A DNA stretch of 64,000 nt from contig OZ245838.1 in NCBI GenBank assembly GCA_965228735.1, positions 3,904,001 to 3,968,000 on the forward strand, read 5' to 3'. Shown one piece after another: positions 28,676-49,605 of this stretch (positions are counted from its first letter, which is position 1; the number at the start of each line of letters is the position of its first letter). A program made the translations under genes and the position numbers. This DNA is from Planctomycetota bacterium. GTDB taxonomy: Bacteria > Planctomycetota > UBA1135 > UBA2386. A model generated the notes under the pieces. The model saw only the letters and a program-made list of their open reading frames with translations, ran no database searches and was not told the origin of the DNA.

Positions 28676-29998
28676 TCACTTCTCGAAGCGGAGGTGGCAG
28701 ACGCTGATGTGGCGTTCGCGGAAGCCGGCTTCGCAGTAGGCGAAGTAGAACGACCAGGCGCGGAGGAGTTCGTCGCCCGCGTCGCGGCCGCCCGCCAGGG
28801 TGGCCACCTCGTCGCGCTTCGTCTGCCACGTCTCGCGCCAGCGCTGCAGCGTGTCCGCGTAGTGCAGGCCGAAGTCCTCGAGGCGGGTCAGGCGCAGGTC
28901 GGTGTGGCGCGTCGCCGCGGCCGTGATGGCCGAGACCGACGGGATGAAGCTGCCAGGGAAGACGTGACGCTTGATGTAGTCGACGTGGCGCAGCGCGGAC
29001 TCGTAGTGCTGGTCGCGGATCGTGATCGCCTGCAGCCCGAGGACGCCGCCGCGGCGCAGGCGCGCGTCACAGGTCTTCAGGTACTCCGGCAGATACTGCG
29101 CGCCGACGGCTTCGATCATCTCGCACGAGATCAGCTTGTCGAACGTGCCGCCCAGCTCGCGGTAGTCGCGTTGCAACGCCGCCACGCGATCGGTCAGTCC
29201 GGCGGCAGCCACGCGCCGCCGCGCCGTCTCGAACTGGTTGCTCGAGATCGTCGTCGTCGTCACGTGCGCGTCGAACTCGGCGGCGGCGGTGATCGCGAGG
29301 CTGCCCCAGCCGGTGCCGATCTCGAGGAGGCGCTCGCCGGGCGCCAGATCGACGAGCCGGCAGAGTCGGCGCAGCTTGTGCCGTTGCGCGTCCTCGAGCG
29401 ACTGGTTCGGTGATTCGAACCACGCCGACGAGTAGGTCATCGTCGGATCGAGGAACAGCTCGAACAGCTCGTCGCTGAGATCGTAGTGCGCCGCGATGTT
29501 GCGCTTGCTGCCGATCTGACTGTTGCGTCGCAGGGCGTGACCGAGGCGCAGCAGCCACTGTCGCGGCGTGCTCCACAGCGAGCGGTCGACGTCGAGCAAC
29601 ACCTCGCGGTCGCGTACGAGCAGCCGCAGAACGGTGACGAGGTCGTCGGTATCCCAGGCCCCGCCGACGAACGCCTCGCCCGCGCCGATCGCGCCCGAGG
29701 TCGCGAGCGCGGAATAGAACGCCGGGTCCCGGATCCAGATCCTGGCGCAACCGAGCGGGCCCGCCGCATCGCCGAAGCGCGCCGTGCCCGCGAAGTCGTG
29801 GATCTCGAGCGCGCCGCTCCGCAGCTGCCGAAGGCGCGCGTGAATGCGCTCCCGCAGCACGCGCTGCCACCAGCTGGCGCGGGCAGCGGATGGCGCCCGC
29901 CAACGCTCGGTCGGGCGCGAGATCGGCGCCGGTGCCGGTCGCGCCGCGCCGCGACGCTGCGGTCGACCGGCCGGAGAAACGAGGATGGGGGCGGTCAT
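28676..29998 (-). CDS. Cyclopropane-fatty-acyl-phospholipid synthase family methyltransferase (UfaA1/UfaM-like)
   Basis: NIAAHYDLS, LDPTMTYS, LEIGTGWG, SCEMIEAVG, VFPG, FYFAYCEAGF. Confidence 0.9.
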   Translation of the reverse strand: MTAPILVSPAGRPQRRGAARPAPAPISRPTERWRAPSAARASWWQRVLRERIHARLRQLRSGALEIHDFAGTARFGDAAGPLGCARIWIRDPAFYSALATSGAIGAGEAFVGGAWDTDDLVTVLRLLVRDREVLLDVDRSLWSTPRQWLLRLGHALRRNSQIGSKRNIAAHYDLSDELFELFLDPTMTYSSAWFESPNQSLEDAQRHKLRRLCRLVDLAPGERLLEIGTGWGSLAITAAAEFDAHVTTTTISSNQFETARRRVAAAGLTDRVAALQRDYRELGGTFDKLISCEMIEAVGAQYLPEYLKTCDARLRRGGVLGLQAITIRDQHYESALRHVDYIKRHVFPGSFIPSVSAITAAATRHTDLRLTRLEDFGLHYADTLQRWRETWQTKRDEVATLAGGRDAGDELLRAWSFYFAYCEAGFRERHISVCHLRFEK

Positions 29999-30849
29999 GT
30001 GCTTGCGCGCGCCTTCTGGGGATGGGCGTAGAACGGCGCCCGCCGCAGCCAGAGCCGCGCCGCGTGCCAATAGATGCCGGCAATGATCTTCAGGCTCAGC
30101 CACGGGTGCCGAACGAACGCGCGCGCGAGCGCACCCGTTGACCACGGCTGCCGCGTCATGACTAGCGTCGCATCGAACGCCTTGCCGTCCTCGCCGTGGT
30201 TCTCCATGTGCACCGCGAGCCGGTCACCCGGCGGCGAGAACCGCCAGCGATACTCGTGCTCCATCGGCTGGAACGGACTCACGTGGAACGCCTTGTCGAA
30301 CGTGCGCCGCAGCCGTCCGCGTTCGTCCCGTGCCACGACGTAGTGATGTCGCTCCCCCCACGGCGTGTTCGTGATCTCCGCGAGGACCGCGACCGGCCGT
30401 TCCTCCGCATCGCGGTCGAAGCAGTAGTAGAACGTGACCGGGTTGAACGAGTAGCCGAAGCACCGCAGGCCGGTGAGCATGCGCACCGCCCCGGTCGGCC
30501 GCGCGCCCGTCGCCCGTTCGACCGCGTCCTTCACCGCGTCCCCGAGGGGCTGCGCGGGATCGCCGAAGTAGTCCGCGCGGCGGAAGCGCATCGGCGCCGG
30601 CCGCTTCGCCGACCAGAACCACCGCCCGGCGAACGCCGCGTCGATCTCGTCGACGTCGAGATAGACGTAGGCCAGCCGCACGGCAAAGCCGTGATCCACC
30701 GCGTCGAATCGGCGGTGTCGCACGGTTCCGAAGTAGACGCCGCTATGCCGGACGGCACCGTTCTCGACAGCACCGTTCTCGACGGCGCCGCTCTCGACGG
30801 GGCTGCTCGGAACGACACCGCGTCCGACCTCGTTCGCCGCCACGCTCAT
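29995..30849 (-). CDS. DUF1365 protein (UfaO-like)
   Basis: VRHRR, GYSFNPVTFYYC, EITNTPWGERH.Y, KAFHVSPF, IYWHAARLW. Confidence 0.9.
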   Translation of the reverse strand: MSVAANEVGRGVVPSSPVESGAVENGAVENGAVRHSGVYFGTVRHRRFDAVDHGFAVRLAYVYLDVDEIDAAFAGRWFWSAKRPAPMRFRRADYFGDPAQPLGDAVKDAVERATGARPTGAVRMLTGLRCFGYSFNPVTFYYCFDRDAEERPVAVLAEITNTPWGERHHYVVARDERGRLRRTFDKAFHVSPFQPMEHEYRWRFSPPGDRLAVHMENHGEDGKAFDATLVMTRQPWSTGALARAFVRHPWLSLKIIAGIYWHAARLWLRRAPFYAHPQKARAST

Positions 30850-32174
30850 GCGACGACGAGCTCCGGCACGGTCTTAGGGCCCACACCGCTGTCGATGCCG
30901 AACGCACGCGCGACGCGCAGCGCTGCCTTGACGCCGTCCTCGTGAAAGCCGAACCCGCACCACGCGCCACAGAACCACACGCGGTTGCTGCCGCTGACGG
31001 CGTCGAGTCGCCCCTGCGCCGCGACACCGGCTGCGTCGAACACCGGATGGTGATACTCGAAGCGCTGCACGATCTTCTGCGGATCGATCGCGTCGGTGCT
31101 GTTCAGGCTCACGAGATAGCGCTCGTCGGTTCGCAGCCCCATCAGCGTGTTCATGTCGTAGGTCACCGTCGCGCAATCCGCCTCTGACTTCGGCAACCGG
31201 TAGTTCCACGCCGACCACGCAGCGCGGCGCTCGGGCAACTGCCGTTCGTCGGTGTGCAGGACCACGTCGTTGGGCTGGTACGGGATCGCCGCGAGCAGCT
31301 CGCGTTCGGCCGGGCTGGGATCGACGAGCATCCGCAGCGCGGTGTCGCTGTGCGTCGCGAGCACCGCGTGATCGAAGCGCTCGGGCTCGCGCCCCATGAC
31401 ACGAACGTCGACCCCGGCCGCGGCGCGCTCGACCGCGACGACCGGCGACCGCAGCCGGATGCGATCCGCGAACGTCCGGGTCAGCGGTTCGAGGTATTCG
31501 CGCGAACCGCCGACGACCGTGTACCACTGCGGCCGGCCGCGGACCTGCAGCATCCCGTGGTTCTTGAAGAAGCGCACGAAGAAGCGGGCCGGCATGGCGG
31601 CGAGCGCCTCGGGTCGAGCCGACCAGATCGCGGCCATCATTGGCACGAGGTACCACTCGGCGAACGCCGACCCGAGCCTGGCCCGTTCGAGCACCTCCGC
31701 GAGCGTGAGGTCGGTGTCCTCGAACGACTCGGCCAGATCGTGAAAGCGCAGGATGTCGCGCACCATCCGCAGGAAGCGCGGCCGCAGCAGGTTGCGCTTC
31801 TGGGCGAACAGCCCGCGCAGGCCCGTGCCGCAGTATTCGAGGCCAGTGCGCTCACAGTGCACCGAGAAACTCATCGTCGACGGCCGCAACGCGACGCCGA
31901 GGCGCGCGAGCAACGCGAAGAACTCGGGATACGTTCGGTCGTTGCAGACGATGAACCCCGTGTCGACCGCGACCGACTCGGACCCGCCGCCGGCCTTCTT
32001 CTGCCGTGCGACATCGACGGTGTGCGTGTGCCCCCCGATCCGCTCCGCCGCCTCGAAGACGGTGACCTCGTGTCGCGTCGCGAGCCGTTCGGCCGCGAGC
32101 AACCCGGAGATGCCCGTGCCGATCACCGCGATGCGACGCGGTGCTCCATCGATCACGGACGCCCCGCTCGTCAC
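30846..32174 (-). CDS. FAD-dependent oxidoreductase (UfaD/Rv0449c-like)
   Basis: IAVIGTGISG, GGHTHT, VDTGFIV, AAWSAWNY, YHHP, GFGFHEDG. Confidence 0.9.
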   Translation of the reverse strand: MTSGASVIDGAPRRIAVIGTGISGLLAAERLATRHEVTVFEAAERIGGHTHTVDVARQKKAGGGSESVAVDTGFIVCNDRTYPEFFALLARLGVALRPSTMSFSVHCERTGLEYCGTGLRGLFAQKRNLLRPRFLRMVRDILRFHDLAESFEDTDLTLAEVLERARLGSAFAEWYLVPMMAAIWSARPEALAAMPARFFVRFFKNHGMLQVRGRPQWYTVVGGSREYLEPLTRTFADRIRLRSPVVAVERAAAGVDVRVMGREPERFDHAVLATHSDTALRMLVDPSPAERELLAAIPYQPNDVVLHTDERQLPERRAAWSAWNYRLPKSEADCATVTYDMNTLMGLRTDERYLVSLNSTDAIDPQKIVQRFEYHHPVFDAAGVAAQGRLDAVSGSNRVWFCGAWCGFGFHEDGVKAALRVARAFGIDSGVGPKTVPELVVA

Positions 32175-33106
32175 CGTTCGTCCTTCGGCAGCATCCGATC
32201 CCGCGCACGCGCGCGGGCGGGCAGCGGCCGGATACCGGCAACGAGCCCGAGGCATGCCATCGTCCACAACACGTAGAATGAGACGTCGATCTGCCACCAA
32301 CGGAAGCCCTGGCGCACGTTGCCGGGGCACCAGTGATGATTGTTGTGCCAGCCTTCGCCGAGCGTGAGCACCGCGAGCACGAGGGAGTTGCGACTGTGAT
32401 CGCGTGTCGGCCACACGCGCCGGCCGAGCACGTGACCGGCGCTGTTCACGAGTGCAGTCACGTGGAAGAGCGCGGTCGTCGAGATGCAGAAGCCCCAGAC
32501 GACCATCTGCAGCGCGGACGTCTCGAGCGCCGGCGAGGTCGCCTCGAGGACGGCGCCCAGGCCTGCGAGCGCGAGCACGAGCAGGATCGGCACGATCCGG
32601 TCGTGTCGATCGAGCCAGACGAGCTCGGGGAACTTCGCGAGATCCTGAACCTGCGAGAGGTCGGTGCGCCAACCCGACCGCGTCGTGAACCACCCGATGT
32701 GTGACCACCAGAAGCCGTGCACGTGCGGCGAGTGCGGATCCGCGCTCGTGTCCGAACCGCGGTGGTGCTTGCGATGATGGGCCGCCCACCACAGCGGCCC
32801 GCGCTGGACCGCGGCGGCGCCGAGCAGCGCGGCGGCGAACTGCACCGGCCGCGACATCCGGTAAGTCCGATGCGCGAAGTAGCGGTGGTAGAACGCCGTG
32901 ATGGCGAACATCCGCACGAGGTAGAGTAGGCTCGCGACGGCGACGGCGACCGGACTCCAGCCCACGACGAGAACGAGGAGGCAACCCGCGTGCATCACGA
33001 GCCACGGACTGATCCGCCCCCACTGCACTGCGTCGTCCGGGCCTCGGCGACGGGCGGGGTCGGTGTCGGTCGCCGAAGGCGGGAGAGCGGGCTGGATGGC
33101 GGTCAC
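32171..33106 (-). CDS. Acyl-CoA (delta-9 type) desaturase
   Basis: His boxes HRYFAH, HRKHH, DPHSP, GEGWHNNHH. Confidence 0.9.
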   Translation of the reverse strand: MTAIQPALPPSATDTDPARRRGPDDAVQWGRISPWLVMHAGCLLVLVVGWSPVAVAVASLLYLVRMFAITAFYHRYFAHRTYRMSRPVQFAAALLGAAAVQRGPLWWAAHHRKHHRGSDTSADPHSPHVHGFWWSHIGWFTTRSGWRTDLSQVQDLAKFPELVWLDRHDRIVPILLVLALAGLGAVLEATSPALETSALQMVVWGFCISTTALFHVTALVNSAGHVLGRRVWPTRDHSRNSLVLAVLTLGEGWHNNHHWCPGNVRQGFRWWQIDVSFYVLWTMACLGLVAGIRPLPARARARDRMLPKDER

Positions 33107-33128
33107 GAACGAGATCCTCACGCTAACG

Positions 33129-33155
33129 TTCGCGCAGGTCGAGAACGCAGATGCA
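33129..33155 (-). promoter_or_regulatory. Putative SigK-like ECF promoter (desaturase operon)
   Basis: Minus strand TGCATCT-N16-CGAA. Confidence 0.7.
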
Positions 33156-33163
33156 GTTCGCCC

Positions 33164-33190
33164 TGCATCCCGCGGGGGAATCCCGGCGAA
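33164..33190 (+). promoter_or_regulatory. Putative SigK-like ECF promoter (DUF1295 operon)
   Basis: TGCATCC-N16-CGAA, 14 nt before ATG 33205. Confidence 0.75.
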
Positions 33191-33204
33191 CCGACCTGTT
33201 ACGC

Positions 33205-34026
33205 ATGAACCCGTTCGCCGCCGCTGCTCCGCTCCTGGGTCTCGCCTGGGCCACCCTTGCCGCCCTCTTCGGGCTGCTCTGGTGGCGGCAGACCAAGACC
33301 CGGAATGCGACATCCGTCGATGCCGGCTGGTCGGCGGCGATCGGCGCCGTCGCTCTCGTCGGCGCGATCGCCGGCACGGGCAGCCTGAACCAGCGGATCC
33401 TGCTGGCCGCGCTCGCGCTGGCGTGGAGCGGCCGGTTGACGTGGCATCTCGTGCGCGATCGCATCCTCGCCGAGTCCGAGGAGGACGGCCGCTACCGCGC
33501 TTTGCGTGACGTATTCGGCCAGCGCGAGCAGCTCGGCTTCTTCGCCGTCTACCAGTTCCAGGCGTTCCTCGCGCTCGCGTTTGCCACGCCGTTCGTCGTG
33601 GCCGCCTGGGGCGAGGCCACGAGCATCACGCCGCTGCAGAGCGCCGGCGTCGCGCTCGCCGCGCTCAGCCAGGTGCTCGAGAACATCGCGGATCGCCAGC
33701 TGAGCGCGCACCGCCGCGACCCGAACAATCGCGGCGTCACCTGCCGGCGCGGTCTCTGGCGCTACAGCCGGCATCCGAATTACTTCTTCGAGTGGCTCAC
33801 GTGGTGCGGCTTCGGCCTCGTCCACGTGCCCGCGCTCGGCTGGTTCGCGATGATCGCGCCGGCCCTCATGTTCATCTTCGTCCGCTACTTCTCCGGCATC
33901 CCGTTCACCGAGAAGCGCGCGCTGAAGACGCGCGGCGACGACTACCGCCGCTACATGCAGACGACCAACGCGTTCTTCCCGGGCCCGCCCAGCGCGATTA
34001 CCGAAGCCTCCAACCCATCGTCATGA
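33205..34026 (+). CDS. DUF1295 membrane protein
   Basis: VDAGW, EDGRY, ADRQL, GLWRYSRHPNYFFEW, SGIP..E, YM..TNAFFP. Confidence 0.9.
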   Translation: MNPFAAAAPLLGLAWATLAALFGLLWWRQTKTRNATSVDAGWSAAIGAVALVGAIAGTGSLNQRILLAALALAWSGRLTWHLVRDRILAESEEDGRYRALRDVFGQREQLGFFAVYQFQAFLALAFATPFVVAAWGEATSITPLQSAGVALAALSQVLENIADRQLSAHRRDPNNRGVTCRRGLWRYSRHPNYFFEWLTWCGFGLVHVPALGWFAMIAPALMFIFVRYFSGIPFTEKRALKTRGDDYRRYMQTTNAFFPGPPSAITEASNPSS

Positions 34027-35090
34027 CCACCTTCACCGAACGCGCTCTCGAGCGCGGCATCCTGCCCGACGTGCTCGTGCGCTTCGGCATCCGCCGACTC
34101 CTGAAGAAGCGCCTGGAGCGCGAGCAGGTCAGCGACCCCGAGATCTCCGCGCAGCGGCTGCAGGACTGGATCGCGCGCTGCGACGACAGTCCGATCGCGA
34201 TCGACACCGCGGCGGCGAACGACCAGCACTACGAGGTGCCGGCCGCGTTCTTCGAGCGCGTGCTCGGCAAGCATCGCAAGTACAGCAGCGGCCTCTGGAC
34301 CGCGCCGGATGCCACGCTCGACGACGCCGAGGCCGCCATGCTGCTGCAGACCGTCAAGCGCGCCGACATCCAGGACGGCATGCGCGTGCTCGACCTCGGG
34401 TGCGGCTGGGGCTCGATCAGCCTCTGGGTGGCGCCCCACTTCCCGCGGTGCCAGGTCATCGGTGTCAGCAACTCGAACAGCCAACGCGAGTTCATCATGG
34501 CCGAGGCGAGGGCGCGCGGTCTCGACAACCTCGAGATCCGCACGTGCGATGCCAACCGCTTCGAGCTGACCGAGCCCGTCGACCGCATCGTCTCCGTCGA
34601 GATGATGGAGCACACTCGCAACTGGCGCGGCCTGCTTCGGAATGCCAGCCACTGGCTCGTGCCCGACGGCAAGATGTTCGTGCACGTCTTCACGCACCGG
34701 AGCGTGGGCTACGAGTTCGCCGACGCGGGTGACGACGACTGGATGGCGCGGCATTTCTTCACCGGCGGCCAGATGCCGGCGGACAGCCAGCTGCTGCATT
34801 TCCAGGACGACATGCAGGTCGAATCGCACTGGCGCGTGAACGGCCGGCACTACCAGCGCACCGCCGAAGCGTGGCTGCAGAACCTCGACCGGAACCGCTC
34901 GGAGATCACCGAGATCCTGCGCGCGCCGTACGGCGAGCGCGCCGCGGCCATGACCAACCTGTGGCGCGTCTTCTTCATGGCCTGCGCCGAGCTCTGGGGC
35001 TACGACCGCGGCCGCGAGTGGATCGTCTCGCACTACCGGCTTCATCCGCGCGCGGCGAACGTGCGCCCCGTGATCGCCCGCTCGGCGTGA
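34023..35090 (+). CDS. Second Cfa-like SAM methyltransferase (coclaurine-NMT-like subgroup)
   Basis: ANDQHYEVP, KYSS, LDLGCGWG, SNSNSQ, WMARHFFTGG, WRVFFMACAELW. Confidence 0.88.
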   Translation: MTTFTERALERGILPDVLVRFGIRRLLKKRLEREQVSDPEISAQRLQDWIARCDDSPIAIDTAAANDQHYEVPAAFFERVLGKHRKYSSGLWTAPDATLDDAEAAMLLQTVKRADIQDGMRVLDLGCGWGSISLWVAPHFPRCQVIGVSNSNSQREFIMAEARARGLDNLEIRTCDANRFELTEPVDRIVSVEMMEHTRNWRGLLRNASHWLVPDGKMFVHVFTHRSVGYEFADAGDDDWMARHFFTGGQMPADSQLLHFQDDMQVESHWRVNGRHYQRTAEAWLQNLDRNRSEITEILRAPYGERAAAMTNLWRVFFMACAELWGYDRGREWIVSHYRLHPRAANVRPVIARSA

Positions 35091-35105: not shown

Positions 35106-35115
35106 TATCTTCGTC

Positions 35116-36171
35116 TCACCGCGCGTCGAGCAATCGGCGGATCTCCGCGGACGCAGAGGTGCCGTCCGTCGCCGCGGCGTCCGCGCCGATCGCGCGGAAC
35201 AAATCGGGCGCGATCGCGAACGGCGCGCCGCCCGCGACGATCGGGGTCGCCTCGCCGACGAGTCGGCGCAGCTCGGTGACGAGAATCGACATCGAGTGCA
35301 GGTGCAGCGGCATCGTCGCGCTCACCGCGATGACGTCGAAGCGCTCGGCCAGCACGCTCTCGAGATCCTGCGGCGGCATGTCGGGACCGAGGTTGTGCAC
35401 CCGCAGCCCCTCCGCCTGCAGGCGCTGTGCGATCATGCGCAGGCCGAAGCTGTGGTTGTCGCCGCTCGTGCCCATGAGCAATACCCTGGGCGCGTCGGCC
35501 GGCGGCTGCGCGATGTGGTCCTGCGCCGCCCACAACACGCGGTCGACGACCTGCGAACTGAAATGCTCCTCGGCGACCTGGATCTCGCCGATCAGCCACA
35601 TCCGGCCCGTCTCGCGCTGCACGGGCACGAGGATCTCGTCGTGCAGCTGCGGCACGGTCATGCCGTCCTGCAGGGCCTGCCGCACGAGCGCAACCGCGTC
35701 GTCGGCGCGCCCCTCGAGCGTCGCGAGCAGGAACTGCCCCGCGAGGCGGCCACGCGGCGTCGTGACATCGAGATGCGGCGTCGGCTCGAACTCGACGTTC
35801 CGCAGCGCAGCGACGCCCGCATCGAGGATCCGCGTCGCGGCCGGCTGTGCCGACCTCGGCAGTTCGTCGATCAACGCCACGCGCAGCGCCTGCAGCGTGG
35901 CGGCGAGGTAGGCGTCCGGCACCGCGCGATGCCGCAAGGCAACCGCGTACCACTGCACCGAGTGAGCGAACAATTCCGCCCGATCGAATTCGACGGCCGC
36001 CGCGAGGTGCTGCAGCCGAACGAGCACATCGTCGCGCGGCGTGGCGAAGCTGCTCGGCAGCTGCGCGAGCAATTCGGCGTGGTCACTCTCGAGGCGCACC
36101 AGTGCGGCGCTCGCGAGGCCACGTTGCGAGGAGCGAATCAGCTCGGCAGCAAACTCCGCAGTCGTAGTCAT
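35116..36171 (-). CDS. Cobalamin-binding protein with N-terminal globin-like (photoglobin-type) domain, no DNA-binding domain
   Basis: W-x9-EH (WLIGEIQVAEEH), DNHSFG, NLGPDMP, SAT, VAGG; N-terminal helical D...L.HLA.A....LF...W...L..R.VP. Confidence 0.8.
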   Translation of the reverse strand: MTTTAEFAAELIRSSQRGLASAALVRLESDHAELLAQLPSSFATPRDDVLVRLQHLAAAVEFDRAELFAHSVQWYAVALRHRAVPDAYLAATLQALRVALIDELPRSAQPAATRILDAGVAALRNVEFEPTPHLDVTTPRGRLAGQFLLATLEGRADDAVALVRQALQDGMTVPQLHDEILVPVQRETGRMWLIGEIQVAEEHFSSQVVDRVLWAAQDHIAQPPADAPRVLLMGTSGDNHSFGLRMIAQRLQAEGLRVHNLGPDMPPQDLESVLAERFDVIAVSATMPLHLHSMSILVTELRRLVGEATPIVAGGAPFAIAPDLFRAIGADAAATDGTSASAEIRRLLDAR

Positions 36172-36336: not shown

Positions 36337-37641
36337 ATGACCCGTTTCGTCATTCCGATTCTGACTGTTTCTATCCTCGGCGCGAACGCATTCGCGCAAT
36401 CCGGCAACATCGTGGAGGTTGCCAGCAACGCAGGCAAGTTCAACACGCTCATCACGGCCGCGAAGGCTGCCGGGCTGGCCGGCGCCCTGAGCGGCAAGGG
36501 CCCGTTCACGGTGTTCGCCCCGACCGACGCCGCCTTCGGCAAACTCGGTGACGAGGCGATCGCCGATCTGCTGAAGCCGGCGAACAAGGCCAAGCTGGCG
36601 GCGATCCTCAAGTACCACGTCGTCGCCGGGAACGTGCCCGCCTCGGCCGCCATCAAGCTCGACAACGCCAAGACTCTGGGCGGCGAGATGCTGGACCTCG
36701 ATTGGGACGGCAAGGTCCTGACCGTCGGCGGCGCCAAGGTCGTGAGCGCCGACGTCAACGCGAGCAACGGCGTGATCCACGTGATCGACTCCGTGCTGGT
36801 GCCGGACATGCGCCCGAACATCGTGCAGGTCGCGAGCAAGGCCGGTTCGTTCAGCACGCTGCTCGCCGCCGCGAAGGCCGCGGGCCTCGTCGACACGCTG
36901 AGCAACGGTGGCCCGTTCACCGTCTTCGCGCCGACCGACGCCGCGTTCGAGAAGGTCGGCAAGGACACGATCGCGTCGCTCCTCAAGCCGGAGAACAAGG
37001 CCAAGCTCACGGCGATCCTGAAGTACCACGTCGTGAGCGGCAACGTGATGGCCAAGACGGCCGTCAAGCTGAAGCAGGCGGAGGCGATCAGCGGCGCGAC
37101 GATTCCGTTCGCGTTCGACGGCAAGGTCCTCCGCGTCGCCGGCGCGAAGGTCGTGAAGACCGACATCGAGGCCAAGAACGGCGTCATCCACGTCGTGGAC
37201 AGCGTCATGATGCCGCCCAAGACCCCGAACATCGTCGGCGCCGCTGCTGCGGCCGGCAAGTTCGGCACGCTGCTCGCCGCGGCGAAGGCGGCCGGGCTCG
37301 CGGAGACGCTCGGGAACGGCGGTCCGTTCACCGTGTTCGCGCCGACGGACGCCGCGTTCGCCAGGCTCGGCGACGACACGATCGCGATGCTGCTAAAGCC
37401 CGAGAACAAGTCGAAGCTCGTGAACATCCTGAAGTATCACGTCGTCGCCGGGACCGTCCCGAGCGCGACCGCGATCAAGCTCACCGAAGCCAAGGCGATC
37501 AACGGCGGCTCGCTGGCGCTGAAGTTCGACGGCAAGGTCCTGCGCATCGGCGACGCGACGGTCATCCAGGCCGACGTGCCCGCGAGCAACGGCGTCATCC
37601 ACGTCATCGACACCGTCCTGCTCCCGAAGAGCAACGATTGA
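36337..37641 (+). CDS. Secreted triple fasciclin (FAS1) domain protein
   Basis: Signal peptide; three copies of GPFTVFAPTDAAF...ILKYHVV...NGVIHV.D.V. Confidence 0.95.
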   Translation: MTRFVIPILTVSILGANAFAQSGNIVEVASNAGKFNTLITAAKAAGLAGALSGKGPFTVFAPTDAAFGKLGDEAIADLLKPANKAKLAAILKYHVVAGNVPASAAIKLDNAKTLGGEMLDLDWDGKVLTVGGAKVVSADVNASNGVIHVIDSVLVPDMRPNIVQVASKAGSFSTLLAAAKAAGLVDTLSNGGPFTVFAPTDAAFEKVGKDTIASLLKPENKAKLTAILKYHVVSGNVMAKTAVKLKQAEAISGATIPFAFDGKVLRVAGAKVVKTDIEAKNGVIHVVDSVMMPPKTPNIVGAAAAAGKFGTLLAAAKAAGLAETLGNGGPFTVFAPTDAAFARLGDDTIAMLLKPENKSKLVNILKYHVVAGTVPSATAIKLTEAKAINGGSLALKFDGKVLRIGDATVIQADVPASNGVIHVIDTVLLPKSND

Positions 37642-37821
37642 TCAACCGCCCCGGCCGGCAGCGTCGCGGCCTTTGGGCCGCGCCGTGGAGCCCGGCCGGG
37701 ACGAAATCCTGCCGGCCTCGCCGCCCGCCGGCTGGCCGATACACCCTAGGTCCAGTTCGTGTCTCCTGACCGCACCTTGTCCGGCGGCCCCTCGACGTCT
37801 TCAATGCGCGGTAGCCAGCGC

Positions 37822-38391
37822 ATGCCAGACACTCTGCTCATCGATGTAGCAGCGGGCCGCCCGGCCGCTGTGGAAGCGTTCTTGAAACGCTACAGCGGGG
37901 CGGTCTGGGGCCTGGCCCGCCGATTCTGCTCCTCGGCCGAAGATGCCGAGGACGCGACCCAGGAGATCTTCGTCGAGGTCTGGAAGAGCGCCGAGCGCTT
38001 CGATCCTCAGGCCGGGAGCGAGCTGACGTTCCTCATGACGATCGCGCGCCGCCGCCTCATCGACCGCACGCGACGACTCGGGCGGCGACCGGCGCCCACT
38101 CTGCTCGAGGATCCGACTACGATCGCCGCTCCCGAGGACAACCGAACCGAACTCGACGACGAAGTGCAGCGCGCCCAGCAGGCCATGACGCAGCTCAAGC
38201 CCGAGCAGCAGCAGGTGCTCGGGCTCGCGCTGGGCCAGGGCCGCACCCACCAGGAGATCTCGGCGGCGATCGGCATCCCGCTCGGCACGGTCAAGAGCCA
38301 CGCACGCCGTGGCCTGATCCGCCTGCGTGAGCTGCTCGGCGCCGACAGTCCGAGCGATGCGCCCTCGACCGGCACGGAGGGGCCGCGATGA
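37822..38391 (+). CDS. ECF sigma factor, SigK-like
   Basis: DAEDATQEIFVEVWKSAERFDP, IARRRLID, THQEIS...PLGTVKS; followed by RskA; start uncertain. Confidence 0.9.
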   Translation: MPDTLLIDVAAGRPAAVEAFLKRYSGAVWGLARRFCSSAEDAEDATQEIFVEVWKSAERFDPQAGSELTFLMTIARRRLIDRTRRLGRRPAPTLLEDPTTIAAPEDNRTELDDEVQRAQQAMTQLKPEQQQVLGLALGQGRTHQEISAAIGIPLGTVKSHARRGLIRLRELLGADSPSDAPSTGTEGPR

Positions 38392-39224
38392 GCACCACCG
38401 ACAACTTCGACGACCGCAACTACGACGAACGGCTCGAGCAGCTCGCCGAGGCGGTCGTCTTCGCGCACGACGAGACCGTGACGCTGCCGGCGGAGAGCGC
38501 CGAGGTCCGTGAGTTCGAACACATGGCCGCGGTCGCCGCCGCCGTCTTCTCGCGAAGCGACGAAGTGCCGAGCGGACTCGCCGCCCGACTCTCGGCGGAT
38601 GCGCTCGCGTTCTGCGCGGAACGCACCAGCACCAGGCCGGCGCTCGAGCATCTCAGCGGTGGCGAACGCGAGCGAGCGGGCATCACGGCGCCAACCGTCG
38701 AGGCGACGGCGGCGAGGCCGCTGCTCGCTTCCGAGAGGACCGGCGGCACGCCGGCCGTGCTCACGTTCTTGCTCGGAGTCGCCGCCGTCGCCCTCGTGTG
38801 GATCGGCGTCGACATGAGCGCCGCCGACGCGCCTCCCATCGATCTGCTTCGCACCGCGCTCGTCGAACGCTCCGGCACCCGCACCCTGCAGTGGCAGGCC
38901 GGCCCGAGTCCGCTGAGTGGCAGCGTGCAGGGCGACGTCGTGTGGAACGACGAAGCCCAGGAAGGCTACCTGACCTTCGCGGGCCTGCCGCCGCTCGACG
39001 AGACCCGCCGCTTCCAGCTCTGGATCGTCGACGCCGACCGCCCGGACAGCGATCCGGTCGACGGCGGGCTGTTCTCGATCGAGGACAGCAGCCGGTCCGA
39101 GATCGTCCGCATCGACCCCAAGATCCCGATCCGGAAGGCGGCCGCGTTCGTGGTCACCGTCGAGGACTGGGACGGCGTCGTGGTGTCGAAGAAGCAGGAC
39201 GTCGTCGCCGTCGCCGGGCTGTAG
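38388..39224 (+). CDS. Anti-sigma factor, RskA type
   Basis: Overlaps the sigma stop; single TM; GDVVW...GLPP...FQLW...PVDGG...AFVVTVE..GVVVS. Confidence 0.85.
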   Translation: MSTTDNFDDRNYDERLEQLAEAVVFAHDETVTLPAESAEVREFEHMAAVAAAVFSRSDEVPSGLAARLSADALAFCAERTSTRPALEHLSGGERERAGITAPTVEATAARPLLASERTGGTPAVLTFLLGVAAVALVWIGVDMSAADAPPIDLLRTALVERSGTRTLQWQAGPSPLSGSVQGDVVWNDEAQEGYLTFAGLPPLDETRRFQLWIVDADRPDSDPVDGGLFSIEDSSRSEIVRIDPKIPIRKAAAFVVTVEDWDGVVVSKKQDVVAVAGL

Positions 39225-44489: not shown

Positions 44490-44515
44490 TGCATCCGCTC
44501 GCGTCGTTCTGCGAA
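44490..44515 (+). promoter_or_regulatory. Putative SigK-like ECF promoter (nhaA)
   Basis: TGCATCC-N15-CGAA, 13 nt before ATG 44529. Confidence 0.65.
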
Positions 44516-44528
44516 TACCGAGTCGCGA

Positions 44529-45737
44529 ATGGATTCGATGTCCCCCGACGACGAGACCGGCGAGCTCGCCGAAGACGCGCGTCGCCGGACGGACCTGATC
44601 GGCGGCCTGCTGCTGATCGCCGCTACGGTCTGTGCGATCGTAGCCGCAAATACGCCGTTGGCGACGATCTACGACCAGCTGCTCGACACGCGCCTCGCCG
44701 TGAGCGTAGGCGACGCGGCACTCGACAAGCCGCTGCTGCTCTGGATCAACGATGGCCTCATGGCGATATTCTTCCTGCTGGTCGGCCTCGAGCTGAAGCA
44801 GGAAGTGCTGGCGGGTCAGCTTTCGAGCGTTCAACGGGCGCTGCTCCCGCTCTGCGCCGCGGCGGGCGGCGTCGTCGTGCCCGTTGCGATCTACGCGTTG
44901 TGGAACTGCGACGATCCGGGCCGGATGCAGGGCTGGGCGATCCCCGCGGCCACCGACATCGCCTTCGCGATCGGCGTGCTCGCGCTGCTCGGCCGCCGTG
45001 TCCCCGTCGCGCTCCGCACGTTTCTGCTCTCGCTCGCGGTCTTCGACGACCTCGCGGCGATCGTGATCATCGCTGCTGCCTACACCGACAAGATCGCCTG
45101 GGGGGCCCAGATGGCGGCGCTCGCGACCGTCGTCGTGCTCTTCGTGATGAACCGGCTGCGCGTGACCCGCTACGGCATGTATCTGCTGGTCGGCGCCGTG
45201 CTCTGGGTGTGCGTGCTCAAGTCGGGCATTCACGCGACGCTCGCCGGTGTCATCGTCGGCGCCGCGATACCGCGTCGCCCGGTGAACGCGCTCGGCCACT
45301 CGCCGCTGCACCAGCTCGAACACGTGCTGCGCCCCTGGGTCGCGTTCTTCATCCTCCCGGTATTTGCCTTCGTCAATGCCGGAGTCGCGTTGCGATCGGT
45401 GGAGCTCGCCACGTTCGCGGACACCGTGACCCTCGGCGTCGGCACGGGGCTGCTCATCGGCAAGCTGCTCGGGGTATTCGGCACCACGATGGTGTTGCGA
45501 CGCTTCGGCTACGGGCGCGATCCCGGCGATCCGACGCCATCGCAGTTCTTCGGGGCCGCCGCGCTGGCCGGGATCGGCTTCACGATGAGTCTGTTCATCG
45601 GCACCCTGGCGTTCGAGGACGCACCGCGCAGCTACGATGTGCCGATTCGTCTCGGCGTTCTCGGCGCCAGCGTCGCCGCCGCGGTGCTCGGCCTCGCCGT
45701 GCTCAACCGCGCGCTCCCGACCCGCCCCGCGCAGTAA
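44529..45737 (+). CDS. nhaA: Na+/H+ antiporter NhaA
   Basis: WINDGLMAIFF, GWAIPAATDIAFA, FDDL, KSGIHAT, GK..G, GIGFTMSLFI. Confidence 0.95.
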   Translation: MDSMSPDDETGELAEDARRRTDLIGGLLLIAATVCAIVAANTPLATIYDQLLDTRLAVSVGDAALDKPLLLWINDGLMAIFFLLVGLELKQEVLAGQLSSVQRALLPLCAAAGGVVVPVAIYALWNCDDPGRMQGWAIPAATDIAFAIGVLALLGRRVPVALRTFLLSLAVFDDLAAIVIIAAAYTDKIAWGAQMAALATVVVLFVMNRLRVTRYGMYLLVGAVLWVCVLKSGIHATLAGVIVGAAIPRRPVNALGHSPLHQLEHVLRPWVAFFILPVFAFVNAGVALRSVELATFADTVTLGVGTGLLIGKLLGVFGTTMVLRRFGYGRDPGDPTPSQFFGAAALAGIGFTMSLFIGTLAFEDAPRSYDVPIRLGVLGASVAAAVLGLAVLNRALPTRPAQ

Positions 45738-45748
45738 CGCACGCCAGG

Positions 45749-46633
45749 TCAGCGGCGCTGCGTCTGGCGAATATGGCCGTAGTTGAGAACGGCGACGAAC
45801 ACCGACCCGCCGACGAGATTGCCAGCTATCGCGGTGCCGATGTGCACGACGGCCGACCACGCGTCCACACCGTGGACGAACGCCGCGGTCACGACCTCGG
45901 CCGTGCCCGCGATCGAATGATGCAGCCCGCCGAGGCCGATGAGGAACGTCGTGAAGTAGATGACGACGATCTGGCTGACATCCGGCGGCGTGGACAAGAC
46001 GAGCCAGCCCCCGAGCGCCATGAGCCAACCCGCCAGGATCGCGCTCGCGAACGTCGCACCCGGCGCGAAGTGCAGCATGTGATCGGCAACCACCCGATAA
46101 CCCTCGCCGGCGCCGACGACGCTTTCGGTCGTCGACAGCATGAACGCGCCGATGACGCAGCCGATGAGATTGCCGCCGAGCACCGTCAGCCAGACGCGCA
46201 GCATGCTGCGGACCGAGGACCGACCGTCGAGCATCGGGTAGACCGCCAGCGCCGTGTGCTCCGTGAACAGCTGCGTGCCGCTCATCAGGACGAGCACGAA
46301 GCCGAGCGGGTAGACGAGCGCGACGAGGATCCGGCTCGCGACCCCACCGAGATCGGCTGCAAACATCGTCATCACCCCGACGGCCATCGCCGTGAACGCC
46401 AGAATGGCGCCGGCTGATATGGCCGACAGCAGCAGCGAAGCGAGCGGACGAAGCGATTGTTCCGCACCTTCGCGGATCGCCGTCTGCAGCACGTCGTCCG
46501 GATGCCGGATGACCTGGTCGCTGCGCTTGAGGACGACCGGCGTGAACTCGGAGTCTTCCCGAGCGCGCTCGACCTGACGTTCGGTCGGTGCGTCGTCGGG
46601 TTCGGGGTCGGAGAGGTCGGGGTCGCTCGTCAT
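45749..46633 (-). CDS. Formate/nitrite transporter family protein (YfdC-like)
   Basis: EG..LRP, YPLGF, QLFTEHT, GNLIG, AGWLMA, HSIAG, GNLVGG. Confidence 0.85.
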   Translation of the reverse strand: MTSDPDLSDPEPDDAPTERQVERAREDSEFTPVVLKRSDQVIRHPDDVLQTAIREGAEQSLRPLASLLLSAISAGAILAFTAMAVGVMTMFAADLGGVASRILVALVYPLGFVLVLMSGTQLFTEHTALAVYPMLDGRSSVRSMLRVWLTVLGGNLIGCVIGAFMLSTTESVVGAGEGYRVVADHMLHFAPGATFASAILAGWLMALGGWLVLSTPPDVSQIVVIYFTTFLIGLGGLHHSIAGTAEVVTAAFVHGVDAWSAVVHIGTAIAGNLVGGSVFVAVLNYGHIRQTQRR

Positions 46634-46727
46634 TGGACTCACAGCTTACGTCGCATGGATCCGTCATACGGGTCCGGCGCGCGACGCGACGCTTCGGCCG
46701 CCCCTCGAACCTGGTGGGCGAAGCAGA

Positions 46728-47213
46728 CTACATTTCGCGCTGCGAGTGGAGCATCCAGTGGTGCTTCTCGAGCGCGCCGACCACGGCGATGGCGAGGTCC
46801 TCGCTGACGGGATCGACCTCACCGAGAGCTGCGATGCAGCCGCGGCCGTTCTTGACGACGATCGAGATGTCGTCACAGACGGTGTCGATCGCGTCTTCCA
46901 CGGAAAGCAGGCCGGCCGGGAACTCACCGAACGGCGATTCCTCCGCGACCCGTCCGGGCAGGCCGTCGGCAGCGCCACCCAGCGTCACGATCCGCTCCGC
47001 GATGTCGTCGACGGCATTCCGCACGTCGACCAGGATCTCGTCCAGCTGCTCGTGCACGGACTTGAACCGCATCCCGCGCAGGTTCCAGTGCGCCTGCTTC
47101 AGGCGCAGGGCCAGGCCGATGGTCGGCGGCAGCCAGCGTTGCAGCGCCGCGAGCGCCTGCTCGCGGGATTCATCGGACAGATCGAACGGAACGGGGCGGA
47201 GGAGGCGTTTCAC
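46728..47213 (-). CDS. dps: Dps ferritin-like protein
   Basis: KQAHWNLRG..F..VHEQLD, DDIAER, EKHHWML. Confidence 0.93.
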   Translation of the reverse strand: MKRLLRPVPFDLSDESREQALAALQRWLPPTIGLALRLKQAHWNLRGMRFKSVHEQLDEILVDVRNAVDDIAERIVTLGGAADGLPGRVAEESPFGEFPAGLLSVEDAIDTVCDDISIVVKNGRGCIAALGEVDPVSEDLAIAVVGALEKHHWMLHSQREM

Positions 47214-47222
47214 GTCCCGGTC

Positions 47223-47249
47223 TTCGCCGGGGCGCGGCCGGCGGTTGCA
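47223..47249 (-). promoter_or_regulatory. Putative SigK-like ECF promoter (dps)
   Basis: Minus strand TGCAACC-N16-CGAA, 9 nt before GTG 47213. Confidence 0.65.
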
Positions 47250-47292
47250 GTCTTGCTCCCCTGGATGCGCTCGTCCGCAGACCGCTGGCGGC

Positions 47293-47319
47293 TGCATCCC
47301 CGTGCCTGACGCGGGCGAA
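47293..47319 (+). promoter_or_regulatory. Putative SigK-like ECF promoter (photolyase)
   Basis: TGCATCC-N16-CGAA. Confidence 0.75.
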
Positions 47320-47394
47320 ACGCCAACGCGTGATGGTCGTCGAAGATTGCCCCTGCCGCATCCCGGAGCTGCTCCCGAGCCGCGGGGTTTCAGG

Positions 47395-48981
47395 ATGACG
47401 GCGTTCTCGCGGCCGTGGATTCGCGGCCGGGCGCGCCGCCTGCTGATCGTCTTCGGCGACCAGCTGGACAAGAGCGCGCCCGCACTCACCGGGCTCGACC
47501 GAGAACAGGACGCCGTCCTGATGGTCGAGGTCGAGGACGAAGCCCGGCGTGGGCCGAGCCACAAGCAGCGGGTCGTGATGTTCCTTGCCGCGATGCGGCA
47601 CTTCGCGAGCACCCTGCAGGACGACGGCTACCGCGTCGAATACGTGACCTTGGATCACGCCGACAACACGCAGTCGTTCCAGAGCGAGATCGAGCGCGTC
47701 GGCCGCAAGGTCGAGGCCGAGCAGCTCGTCGCGACGCAGCCGGGTGAGTGGCGCGTGCTCGACGCTGTCGCGGCAGCCGCCGACACGCTCGGAGTGCCGC
47801 ACGAAGTGCTGCCGGACGAGCACTTCTTCACCGCCCTGGAGGACTTCGACCGCTGGGCCGAGGGCCGCAGCAGGCTCACGATGGAGTACTTCTACCGGGA
47901 GCAGCGCAAACGACTGGGCATCCTCGTCGACGACGACGGCAAACCGGAGGGCGGCGACTGGAACTACGATTCCGAGAACCGCGAGTCCTTCGACTCCGCG
48001 CCGGACGTCCGCGCGCCCTACACGCCGCGCCCCGATGACATCACGCTCGAGGTGTGCGAGCTCGTCGAGCGGCGACTGTCCGACCTTCCCGGCAAACTCG
48101 AGCCCGACGAGTTCCGCTGGCCGGTGACGCCGACCACCGCACGGCGCGCGCTCGACGACTTCATCGAGCACCGCCTCGGACGCTTCGGAACGTACGAGGA
48201 CGCGATGTGGAGCGGCGAGCCGGTGCTCTACCATTCGATGCTCTCGGCCGCGCTGAATCTCAAACTGCTCGATCCGCGGGACTGTGTCGAGGCGGCCGTC
48301 AAGGCCTACGAGAACGGCGACGCGCCGCTCAACAGCGTCGAGGGCTTCGTCCGCCAGCTGATCGGCTGGCGCGAGTTCATCCGCGGCGTCTACTGGCGCG
48401 AAGGCCGCGACTACCGCGACCGCAACGGGCTGCGCCAATACGGCGAGCTGCCCGAGTTCTTCTGGAACGCCGAGACCGAAATGGCGTGCCTCGCCGATTG
48501 TCTGCGGCCCGTCGTGGACTCGGCGTACTCCCACCACATTCCGCGGCTCATGGTCATCGGCAACTTCGCCATGACCGCGGGCATACAACCGCGCGCGATC
48601 GGCGACTGGTTCTACGGCATGTACACCGACGCCGTCGATTGGGTCACGACGCCGAACACGATCGGCATGGCGATGCACGCGGACCACGCGGTCGTCGGCA
48701 CCAAGCCGTACGCAGCCAGCGGCAAGTACGTGAAGCGCATGGGAAACTACTGCAGCTCCTGCCGCTACGACGTCAACGAACGATCCGGTCCGGACGCCTG
48801 CCCGTTCAACGTGTTCTACTGGGACTTCCTGCGGCGCAACCGCGACCGGTTCGAGGACAACAACCGGATGGCGATGATGCTGAAGAACCTCGATCGGATG
48901 GCCGACGACGAGGCCGAGGCGATCACCCGTGACGCGCGGCGACTGCGGCGCGAGTTCGGCATCGGCGCCATCTCGCGCTGA
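47395..48981 (+). CDS. FeS-BCP cryptochrome/(6-4) photolyase (CryB / Agrobacterium PhrB type)
   Basis: FGDQL, HKQ, MEYFYR, GG.WNYD..NR, EGFVRQ.IGWRE, HHI.RLM, KPY, four Cys (MACL, YCSSC, ACPFN). Confidence 0.93.
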   Translation: MTAFSRPWIRGRARRLLIVFGDQLDKSAPALTGLDREQDAVLMVEVEDEARRGPSHKQRVVMFLAAMRHFASTLQDDGYRVEYVTLDHADNTQSFQSEIERVGRKVEAEQLVATQPGEWRVLDAVAAAADTLGVPHEVLPDEHFFTALEDFDRWAEGRSRLTMEYFYREQRKRLGILVDDDGKPEGGDWNYDSENRESFDSAPDVRAPYTPRPDDITLEVCELVERRLSDLPGKLEPDEFRWPVTPTTARRALDDFIEHRLGRFGTYEDAMWSGEPVLYHSMLSAALNLKLLDPRDCVEAAVKAYENGDAPLNSVEGFVRQLIGWREFIRGVYWREGRDYRDRNGLRQYGELPEFFWNAETEMACLADCLRPVVDSAYSHHIPRLMVIGNFAMTAGIQPRAIGDWFYGMYTDAVDWVTTPNTIGMAMHADHAVVGTKPYAASGKYVKRMGNYCSSCRYDVNERSGPDACPFNVFYWDFLRRNRDRFEDNNRMAMMLKNLDRMADDEAEAITRDARRLRREFGIGAISR

Positions 48982-49008
48982 TCGCGACCCGCCGCGAGCG
49001 AACGAATC

Positions 49009-49035
49009 GGCATCCGCACGCGGCCCCCCGGCGAA
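49009..49035 (+). promoter_or_regulatory. Putative SigK-like ECF promoter (sodC)
   Basis: GGCATCC-N16-CGAA, 12 nt before ATG 49048. Confidence 0.7.
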
Positions 49036-49047
49036 CATGCCAGGGCG

Positions 49048-49605
49048 ATGATCTGCACCAGACCAGGAGTGGCAGCGATGCTGCTCGTAACCCTTCTCAG
49101 CGGCTGCGAGTCCGAGGCCCACGGGACCAGTATCGGCACCGGACCCGTCGAGAACGCCGTCGCCGTGATCCGACCGGTCGGCGACAGCAACGTCCGCGGC
49201 ACCGTGCGGTTCGAACTGACCACCGCGGGCGTGAAGCTCACGGGTCAGGTGACCGGCCTCACTCCGGGCAAGCACGGCTTCCACATTCACGAGTTCGGCG
49301 ATCTCACGAACGCGCAGGACGGTTCCTCCGCCGGCGGCCACTACGCTCCGCGGGGCCGCGCCCACGGCCAACCGACGGCCAGAGAACGCCACTTCGGCGA
49401 TCTCGGCAACATCGAGGCCGACGCCAACGGCATCGCCAAGATCGACATGACCGACAAACTCATCGAGCTCGGCGGCGTGCACTTCATCGTCGGCCGGGCC
49501 GTCGTGGTCCACGCGGGCGAGGACACGTTCGGGCAGCCGACCGGCGACGCCGGCGACCGCGTCGGCTTCGGCGTCATCGGCGTCGCCAGCGGCAACGGCA
49601 ACTGA
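49048..49605 (+). CDS. sodC: Cu/Zn superoxide dismutase, lipoprotein
   Basis: Lipobox LLSGC; HGFHIH, SAGGHY, AHG, RHFGDLGN, VVHAGED. Confidence 0.92.
   Translation: MICTRPGVAAMLLVTLLSGCESEAHGTSIGTGPVENAVAVIRPVGDSNVRGTVRFELTTAGVKLTGQVTGLTPGKHGFHIHEFGDLTNAQDGSSAGGHYAPRGRAHGQPTARERHFGDLGNIEADANGIAKIDMTDKLIELGGVHFIVGRAVVVHAGEDTFGQPTGDAGDRVGFGVIGVASGNGN

Follow-up and report, generated by a model that had tools for sequence, protein, structure and literature searches.

The closest precedents for the system described here are the LitR–LitS light responses of Streptomyces and Burkholderia, which center on an extracytoplasmic function (ECF) sigma factor. In Streptomyces coelicolor, LitS (ECF19s4) is induced by the MerR-B12 protein LitR, which is encoded at position −1, with the RskA-domain protein LitB at position +2, and LitS of Burkholderia multivorans (ECF18s6) turns on a cyclopropane-fatty-acid synthase and the photolyase PhrB2 in the light (PMC7826278). 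The promoter consensus described for sigma-LitS is GCATCCR-N15-CVGAAD (PMC11519972). Here, we analyze a 64,000-nt stretch of DNA from a Planctomycetota bacterium (assembly GCA_965228735.1, contig OZ245838.1, positions 3,904,001 to 3,968,000), which as a whole we call the window. In it, the motif TGCATCC-N16-CGAA and close variants precede an operon for a fasciclin protein, an ECF sigma factor and an RskA-type anti-sigma factor, and also several genes for lipid modification and stress defense. We consider it very likely that this motif is the promoter read by the local SigK/LitS-type sigma factor, and predict that the genes behind it form a regulon against light-driven (ultraviolet, photo-oxidative) damage.

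Other described systems share parts of this arrangement. The ECF18/ECF19 clade has an RskA-like anti-sigma factor encoded at +1 and, in ECF18s2, a fasciclin gene at −1; the ECF18 promoter consists of the −35 element TGCATCTT and the −10 element CGTA, and two sigma-4 cysteines (a redox switch) are a trait of ECF18 and some ECF19 subgroups (PMC7826278). The stimulus of the mycobacterial SigK–RskA pair (ECF19s2) has been termed obscure, and in M. kansasii light induces fasciclin genes that have putative SigK sites (PMC9861118). The RpoE–ChrR regulon of R. sphaeroides (ECF11) contains a furan-fatty-acid pathway with RSP1091 (UfaD) and RSP1090 (UfaO, a DUF1365 protein) (PMC7380195).

Recurrence and spacing of the motif

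The original prediction, made from the sequence of the window, had placed (T/G)GCA(T/A)C(C/T)-N15/16-CGAA in front of seven units and ascribed these sites to the local sigma factor. A regular-expression scan of the whole window with this pattern recovers every one of the seven sites (Table 1). Each is intergenic and faces the gene it was assigned to, the gene identities were confirmed by Pfam, and the two proposed pairs of divergent, back-to-back promoters are present, with −35 elements 8 nt and 43 nt apart. The pattern has 11 matches in the window in total; the other four (at 14998, 32088, 56159 and 63324) were rejected as promoters, as they lie within genes and are probably chance matches. 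One of these, GGCATCT-N16-CGAA at 32088-32114 (minus strand), lies in the amine-oxidase (ufaD-like) gene close to its 5′ end, past the desaturase stop, and is probably a chance match rather than an internal promoter because it is not conserved in relatives. GCAWCY-N16-CGAA occurs nine times in the window and 0.71 ± 0.88 times in 100 shuffles of it (shuffle maximum 4), so that the motif is clearly commoner here than in shuffled DNA.

We extended the count to the whole genome, a single contig of 7.19 Mb with 69% G+C, in which a simple codon-usage model called 5,474 genes. GCATCC-Nx-CGAA was counted for x = 8 to 25, and a match was taken as promoter-like when it was non-coding and at most 300 nt upstream of a gene on the same strand. 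At 16 nt there are 44 matches, of which 15 are non-coding and 14 promoter-like, whereas each of the other 17 spacers yields 1–4 promoter-like sites (mean 2.0; Poisson P(≥14) about 3e-8). The looser GCAWCY form gives 21 promoter-like sites at N16 versus a mean of 4.6 at the other spacers. Furthermore, the value of 14 is a lower bound, because the gene caller is crude and lost two true sites: it joined the fasciclin gene to the B12 gene's shadow and set the DUF1295 start too early. The genome-wide scan that had been proposed along with the original prediction thus reveals an enrichment that is specific to the 16-nt spacing and to the orientation. Sites with a 15-nt spacer show no clear enrichment genome-wide, yet they are present at orthologous promoters in relatives. 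One could argue that a GC-rich word pair simply recurs by chance in intergenic DNA, given that 4 of the 11 loose matches in the window are intragenic and that roughly two-thirds of the genome-wide matches are coding. The excess at a single spacer length, the surplus over shuffled sequence and the conservation of the site's position across genera make this explanation practically negligible.

In this genome, the motif precedes the operon of the sigma factor itself and about 15–20 other units. Beyond the window, N16 sites are found before CIA30-fasciclin and fasciclin-PDZ proteins, an Fpg/Nei DNA glycosylase, three AhpC/TSA-like proteins, a DoxX protein, two PQQ_2 propellers, a DUF7218 protein, a 206-residue protein without an assigned family and, just past the window end, a short-chain dehydrogenase (SDR). 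A further N16 site, before a 2-oxoglutarate dehydrogenase gene, may be due to chance, and N15 sites precede genes for an ABC ATPase and a DUF4397 protein. Of about 25 best sites, 12 fall into a 157-kb region surrounding the sigma gene (3.812-3.969 Mb; G000:C1:3812133-3968846), so the regulon is strongly clustered near it. A loose super-cluster is also seen in a relative of the same genus (G001), with seven motif matches inside about 100 kb of its contig C8. The 206-residue protein (L008, G000:C1:3812168-3812788) matches neither Pfam nor NCBIfam and has its ATG 9 nt past CGAA (leaderless type); its orthologue in another relative, G013, also bears the motif, which makes it a conserved member of the regulon.

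Besides the spacer, the distance from the motif to the start codon is restricted. Among 84 non-coding sites of this and related genomes, an ATG or GTG lies 9 nt past CGAA in 25 and 10 nt past it in 11, compared to about 2 at any other offset, and at 25 of the 84 sites the codon at 9–10 nt opens the downstream open reading frame (ORF). This heaping suggests that many of the transcripts are leaderless, beginning at the start codon itself. Transcription would therefore seem to start about 10 nt after CGAA, near the spacing named in the original prediction. Within the window, dps has an in-frame GTG at the leaderless distance of 9 nt, while the ATG codons of sodC and nhaA lie 12 nt and 13 nt past CGAA. 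In front of the photolyase gene, a GTG ten nt past CGAA (followed by an ATG at 47333) opens a frame of 21–22 codons (47330-47398), the TGA stop of which overlaps the photolyase ATG (ATGA, 47395-47398). This frame may represent an upstream ORF that is leaderless and coupled to the photolyase gene. In G001, the start codon 9 nt past CGAA is in frame with the photolyase itself.

The sigma factor and its predicted promoter and targets

The sigma factor consists of 210 residues and contains regions 2 and 4 only (PF04542 and PF04545/PF08281), the typical ECF architecture. Its best PDB matches are M. tuberculosis SigK (4NQW, 1e-19) and, with equal similarity, R. sphaeroides RpoE (2Q1Z, 2e-19), while its top NCBIfam models, PRK12519 (131 bits, cut-off 222) and the SigK model PRK09646 (130 bits, cut-off 226), both score below their cut-offs. 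At E ≤ 1e-20, it is the sole match in its own genome and is found in 25 of 41 related genomes; 23 of these matches persist at E ≤ 1e-43, and the remaining two probably represent paralogues. No terminator-like site was found between the fasciclin and sigma genes, and the start of rskA, at position +1, overlaps the sigma gene stop. The encoded RskA has one hydrophobic stretch at about residues 123–143; it carries no HxxxCxxC zinc motif and has no sequence match in the PDB.

TGCATCC-N16-CGAA fits the target promoter of this clade, with a −10 box closer to that of LitS/SigK than to that of ECF18. Its near-match to the LitS consensus identifies it as a known promoter type of the clade, shifted by about one base. 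We infer from sequence that the neighboring sigma factor reads it, and planctomycete genomes encode many ECF sigma factors (PMC7826278), so another of these, or a DNA-binding protein using the two boxes as an operator, might be the true reader. Such a reader appears very improbable to us: the motif accompanies the operon of this sigma factor in every lineage examined, including those with other gene orders; there is no second close paralogue in the genome; and the factor's own family has a published promoter that the motif matches (PMC11519972). In addition, a rigid spacing, a free spacer sequence and a fixed distance to the start codon fit a promoter, not an operator.

The putative targets nearest to the sigma gene are lipid genes. 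A desaturase gene is followed by genes for a flavin amine-oxidase-like protein, a DUF1365 protein and a cyclopropane-fatty-acid-synthase (CMAS) family methyltransferase, for which the NCBIfam cyclopropane-fatty-acid synthase matches fall below the cut-offs; the divergent unit encodes a DUF1295 membrane protein and a second CMAS-like methyltransferase. Judging by shared families rather than direct alignment, these genes appear to correspond to ufaD/ufaO. The photolyase most closely matches the (6-4) photolyase PhrB (4DJA, 3.3e-150) and CryB (3ZXS, 6.4e-143) in the PDB.

The R. sphaeroides RpoE–ChrR regulon also holds a photolyase, and the RpoE consensus −35 box differs from the −35 box here. 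Its common cargo with the present regulon consists of ufaD/ufaO-type furan-fatty-acid genes, a CMAS methylase and an SDR (PMC7380195, PMC7826278). In contrast to the soluble zinc/cupin protein ChrR, the anti-sigma factor here is a membrane-bound RskA. Mycobacterial SigK, the best solved relative of our sigma factor, likewise has an RskA_C anti-sigma factor and fasciclin targets (MPT70/MPT83), and its locus shares autoregulation and the amine-oxidase, DUF1365, CMAS and DUF1295 genes (PMC7509140, PMC7826278). Unlike the mycobacterial system, the one described here lacks the sigma-4 cysteine pair, stays well below the NCBIfam SigK cut-off, includes a photoreceptor-type partner and controls a much larger regulon that comprises a photolyase.

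The likeness to SigK–RskA and RpoE–ChrR on which the original prediction had been built is thus borne out by the PDB matches, the RskA_C domain and the ufaD/ufaO-type genes, but the closest precedent, LitR–LitS, had gone unmentioned. Both in the latter systems (S. coelicolor/griseus and B. multivorans) and here, a sigma factor of probably the same clade adjoins a divergent B12 photoreceptor-type gene, with an RskA-domain protein nearby, and in Burkholderia the targets likewise include a cyclopropane-fatty-acid synthase and a photolyase. The differences are that LitR, with its MerR helix-turn-helix, acts on DNA, where the protein here has a photoglobin domain instead; that the promoter spacing is about one base off; that many transcripts here are predicted to be leaderless; and that no carotenoid genes were seen among the targets here.

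Table 1. Predicted promoter sites and genes of the candidate regulon (positions in the window)
Feature	Position	Strand	Evidence or remark
CMAS family methyltransferase	28676..29860	-	PF02353, 2.2e-78
DUF1365 protein, UfaO-like	29995..30849	-	PF07103, 3.8e-82
Flavin amine-oxidase-like protein, UfaD-like	30846..32126	-	PF01593
Fatty-acid desaturase family protein	32171..33028	-	PF00487, 1.3e-16
TGCATCT-N16-CGAA	33129..33155	-	Predicted promoter of the desaturase-ufaD-ufaO-CMAS operon; half of a back-to-back pair
TGCATCC-N16-CGAA	33164..33190	+	Predicted promoter of the DUF1295 and CMAS-like methyltransferase genes
DUF1295 membrane protein	33205..34026	+	PF06966, 5.6e-58
Second CMAS-like S-adenosylmethionine (SAM) methyltransferase	34023..35090	+	PF02353, 1.3e-39
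Photocobilin-like protein	35116..36171	-	N-terminal photoglobin, then B12-binding_2 and B12-binding; divergent from the sigma operon
TGCATCC-N16-CGAA	36227..36253	+	Predicted autoregulatory promoter of the fasciclin-sigma-RskA operon; regular-expression scan
Exported protein with three fasciclin domains	36337..37641	+	First gene of the sigma operon; Fasciclin, E 8.5e-111, three stretches
ECF sigma factor, SigK/LitS-like (probably ECF18/19 clade)	37759..38391	+	Sigma70_r2 and r4
RskA-type single-pass membrane anti-sigma factor	38388..39224	+	RskA_C, 40.6 bits (cut-off 29.4)
TGCATCC-N15-CGAA	44490..44515	+	Probable nhaA promoter; weakest of the seven
NhaA Na+/H+ antiporter	44529..45737	+	PF06965, 1.3e-136
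Dps	46728..47213	-	Ferritin domain; NCBIfam Dps 104 bits, below the 114-bit cut-off
TGCAACC-N16-CGAA	47223..47249	-	Predicted promoter of dps; particular to this genome
TGCATCC-N16-CGAA	47293..47319	+	Predicted promoter of the (6-4) photolyase gene
FeS-BCP type (6-4) photolyase	47395..48981	+	DPRP, 6.3e-76
GGCATCC-N16-CGAA	49009..49035	+	Predicted promoter of sodC; particular to this genome
Cu/Zn superoxide dismutase SodC	49048..49605	+	Sod_Cu, 4.6e-43

On the 3′ side of sodC (49774-51878) lie genes for a DUF4345 protein, a YczE-family membrane protein (213.7 bits, above cut-off) and a thioredoxin-like protein. They have no motif of their own and may be reached by readthrough from the sodC promoter.

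The motif in related genomes

We searched the 41 related genomes with the sigma factor, took up to 9.5 kb on each side of the sigma gene in 20 of them and mapped the genes by tblastn. In 16 of these 20 loci, the motif stands before the sigma gene or the fasciclin-sigma operon, while the spacer diverges; among 47 sites chosen by regular expression, the 16-nt spacer shows no sequence conservation at all. As for the remaining four loci, one ends (L052) and one begins (L063) in the fasciclin gene, one has no motif at this place (L060), and in L070 an NmrA/DUF2867 gene precedes the sigma gene, with the motif upstream of both. The back-to-back pair between the desaturase operon and the DUF1295 gene is also kept in relatives, with −35 boxes mostly 5–8 nt apart. 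In loci from another family, the order is motif-sigma-rskA-amine oxidase-DUF1365-CMAS-DUF1295-CMAS, much like that of the mycobacterial sigK locus. The FeS-type photolyase has the motif directly upstream in 6 of 13 relatives' loci, with proteins 32–46% identical to this one. The conservation upstream of orthologues that the original prediction had named as a check is therefore present at the sigma, lipid and photolyase loci.

Genome-wide counts point in the same direction. Compared to a backwards control, the pattern occurs 37 versus 2 times in G013 and 52 versus 2 times in G001. Orthologues bearing the motif are, in G013, those of the 206-residue protein, the SDR, the CIA30-fasciclin protein and a PQQ_2 protein, and in G001 the fasciclin operon and the genes for DUF1295, photolyase, Fpg/Nei (72% identical), fasciclin-PDZ and PQQ_2 proteins. 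Six other genes behind non-coding matches in G013 (one with an only weakly matched orthologue) were rejected as shared members, since they have no site within one mismatch here.

The stretch after rskA (39400-50000) is not syntenic with that of G001. It contains ORFs of no assigned family and genes for a large immunoglobulin-like protein, a HEAT protein, NhaA, an FNT channel, Dps, the photolyase and SodC. The photolyase encoded here is 35–37% identical to the versions of G001 and G002 and 46% identical to one from a genome of another family. Possibly, this segment was acquired or replaced and gained the promoters later.

The photoglobin-B12 neighbor and the probable trigger

Divergent from the sigma operon lies a gene for a putative photoreceptor (35116-36171), which the original prediction had not linked to the regulon. 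The best PDB matches of its product are the photocobilins 8J2Y, 8J2X and 8J2W (1.9e-18 to 1e-16), followed by CtMerR and CarH. The light-response signatures described for the CarH-type B12 module are GxxW, EH, GxxH and GxxxP (PMC11796333, a sister paper of PMC11519972). All four are kept in 17 orthologues, with G189, W192, E202, G237, H240, G262 and P266 invariant and H203 conserved in at least 90%. A profile of the N-terminal 135 residues finds only photocobilin globin domains in the PDB (8J2X, 8J2W and 8J2Y, 7.9e-8 to 1.3e-6), the next match being allophycocyanin at 0.35. AlphaFold models the protein with a mean predicted local distance difference test (pLDDT) score of 94.2 as a whole and 95.6 for the N-domain. 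In Foldseek, the whole model aligns through its B12 module only (template modeling score TMt about 0.8 to the B12 domains of CarH and CtMerR), and the N-domain folded alone adopts a phycobiliprotein-like globin fold and resembles smURFP, allophycocyanin, phycocyanin and photocobilin (TMq 0.70–0.78), although with weak Foldseek E-values of about 5e-3. Taken together, the photocobilin matches, the signatures and the profile and fold of the N-domain identify a photoglobin-B12 protein with the globin first. It thus has the same two modules as the photocobilins SasPcob (8J2W/8J2X) and AbPcob (8J2Y) in reversed order, and both orders are described to occur (PMC8717448). Asp270 and Trp296, which contact biliverdin in SasPcob, align with D48 (at least 90% conserved) and W74 (invariant) when a numbering offset of 6, derived from Trp61 and Glu71-His72, is applied. 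From these conserved residues, the protein is expected to bind adenosylcobalamin and biliverdin and to respond to light. No helix-turn-helix family in Pfam or NCBIfam and no recognizable DNA-binding domain was found in it.

The sensor gene travels with the sigma gene. A scan of species genomes with a 7-sequence alignment, which reaches only this clade of Planctomycetota, found 33 sensor loci, nearly all in Planctomycetota, 31 of which adjoin a fasciclin-sigma-rskA operon. In nearly all 33, the motif separates the B12 gene from the sigma operon, and at least five loci (up to eight if variant −35 boxes are included) have another copy directed at the sensor gene. Of the 41 genomes, the same 23 encode both the sensor (E ≤ 1e-30) and the sigma orthologue (E ≤ 1e-43), including three in which the genes are unlinked; the pairing is tight, though related genomes are not independent samples. 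Its arrangement varies: the operons of G007 and G021 include the sensor gene after rskA, and in G020 (L070, G020:C6 8437-11850) the order is motif, NmrA/DUF2867 protein, sigma factor, photoglobin-B12 protein, with a stop/start overlap and no rskA. In this last locus, the sensor occupies the usual anti-sigma slot, and a sigma-54 activator gene follows. A literature search confined to accessible articles, bioRxiv supplements excluded, turned up no account of an ECF sigma factor associated with a photoglobin-B12 protein; the photoglobin paper PMC8717448 contains the term 'ECF' zero times, and the 'sigma' passages found in PMC10979010 deal with STAS/SpoIIE partners only.

We propose that the membrane anti-sigma factor RskA would hold the sigma factor inactive until a signal frees it, upon which the sigma factor would amplify its own operon and transcribe its targets, many as leaderless mRNAs. 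Predicted targets are the furan/methylated fatty-acid genes (ufaD-, ufaO- and CMAS-like) and those for (6-4) photolyase, Fpg/Nei glycosylase, fasciclin and peroxiredoxin-like proteins and, in this genome only, Dps, SodC and NhaA. Gene content, neighborhood and precedent suggest that the trigger is probably light or photo-oxidative stress, and light would probably be sensed, at least partly, by the neighboring photoglobin-B12 protein. Because this protein has no DNA-binding domain, it would act by contact with the sigma or anti-sigma factor rather than as a LitR-like repressor.

Several observations weigh against this proposal or its breadth. The relatives are kin and so do not count as independent samples, and the core positions of the motif model are invariant by construction because it was trained on sites selected by regular expression, which is circular. 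Counts of TGCATCC-N16-CGAA overlap between genomes without the sigma factor (0, 2, 7, 3 and 1) and those with it (5, 4, 9, 5 and 5), a modest difference that is no strong evidence. Three sites of the window are poorly conserved: the motif is found in none of 6 relatives' loci for sodC, in none of 20 for nhaA (for which the N15 spacing is also not clearly enriched) and in only 1 of 10 relatives' or paralogous loci for dps. The six genes with the motif in G013 but not in this genome leave a regulon periphery that is either plastic or partly due to chance. Regarding the trigger, the sigma factor has a single cysteine, in region 2, with none invariant in a 17-sequence alignment, so that the sigma-4 cysteine pair and with it the disulfide (redox) switch of SigK is absent; the extracytoplasmic domain of RskA points to a signal from the envelope rather than to light sensing in the cytoplasm; and no public RNA runs containing the 7.3-kb stretch were found. 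That stretch (32000-39300) is near-complete in contigs of many public runs from 10 studies and partly present (shares 0.57, 0.34 and 0.31) in runs labeled as coral or macroalgae metagenomes; a sunlit habitat would fit, which is a hint only.

We nevertheless retain dps, sodC and nhaA as probable members, because the background is about 2–5 promoter-like sites per roughly 5,500 genes and because their start codons lie so close past CGAA; their sites are additions of this genome or, less likely, chance. Hence, of the four arms that the original prediction had joined into one regulon, membrane remodeling and photorepair are conserved, while the defense against reactive oxygen species and the ion homeostasis, as listed there, are specific to this genome.

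The motif and regulon could also be real and answer to something other than light. The outer domain of RskA (RskA_C lies outside the membrane) might sense an envelope, redox or metal cue, such as those discussed for mycobacterial SigK with its obscure stimulus; the B12 protein would then be a co-regulated member, as its own copy of the motif in some relatives would suggest, and the photolyase and lipid genes would be general stress cargo, next to Dps, SodC and peroxiredoxin-like proteins that serve in any oxidative stress. We regard such a trigger as unlikely, as a (6-4) photolyase is useful only in the light and is a conserved member, and as the sensor-like protein accompanies the sigma factor in 23 of 23 genomes, even where unlinked, and once takes the anti-sigma slot. 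Moreover, the LitS proteins of Streptomyces and Burkholderia are light switches (PMC7826278, PMC11519972).

If light is the trigger, how it reaches the sigma factor is a separate question, on which we offer a tentative answer. Light may gate an interaction of the photoglobin-B12 protein with the sigma/anti-sigma pair: acting as a soluble anti-sigma factor or as an anti-anti-sigma factor, the protein would bind its partner, or let go of it, once light breaks its cobalamin-carbon bond, an idea we hold as possible but doubtful.

Photo-oxidative defense of the LitS/SigK/RpoE type is known; new here, and sound in silico, are the phylum, the kind of light sensor, the enlarged and partly lineage-specific set of targets and the leaderless architecture. 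The regulon is the output side of the photocobilin-SigK pairing, and its content, with (6-4) photolyase, base-excision repair and furan-fatty-acid genes, points to light. It bridges RpoE–ChrR, SigK–RskA and LitR–LitS, with one common cargo and nearly one promoter, and its promoters provide a concrete readout for probing the SigK–RskA stimulus. If the mechanism by protein contact holds, a short, strictly spaced and often leaderless promoter together with a sensor lacking a DNA-binding domain would make a compact optogenetic light switch. Should the photoglobin-B12 protein indeed be a light-gated partner, this would be the first sigma factor directly controlled by a B12/bilin photoreceptor, and light would be the ancestral, long-sought signal of the whole SigK–RskA family, its mycobacterial members included.

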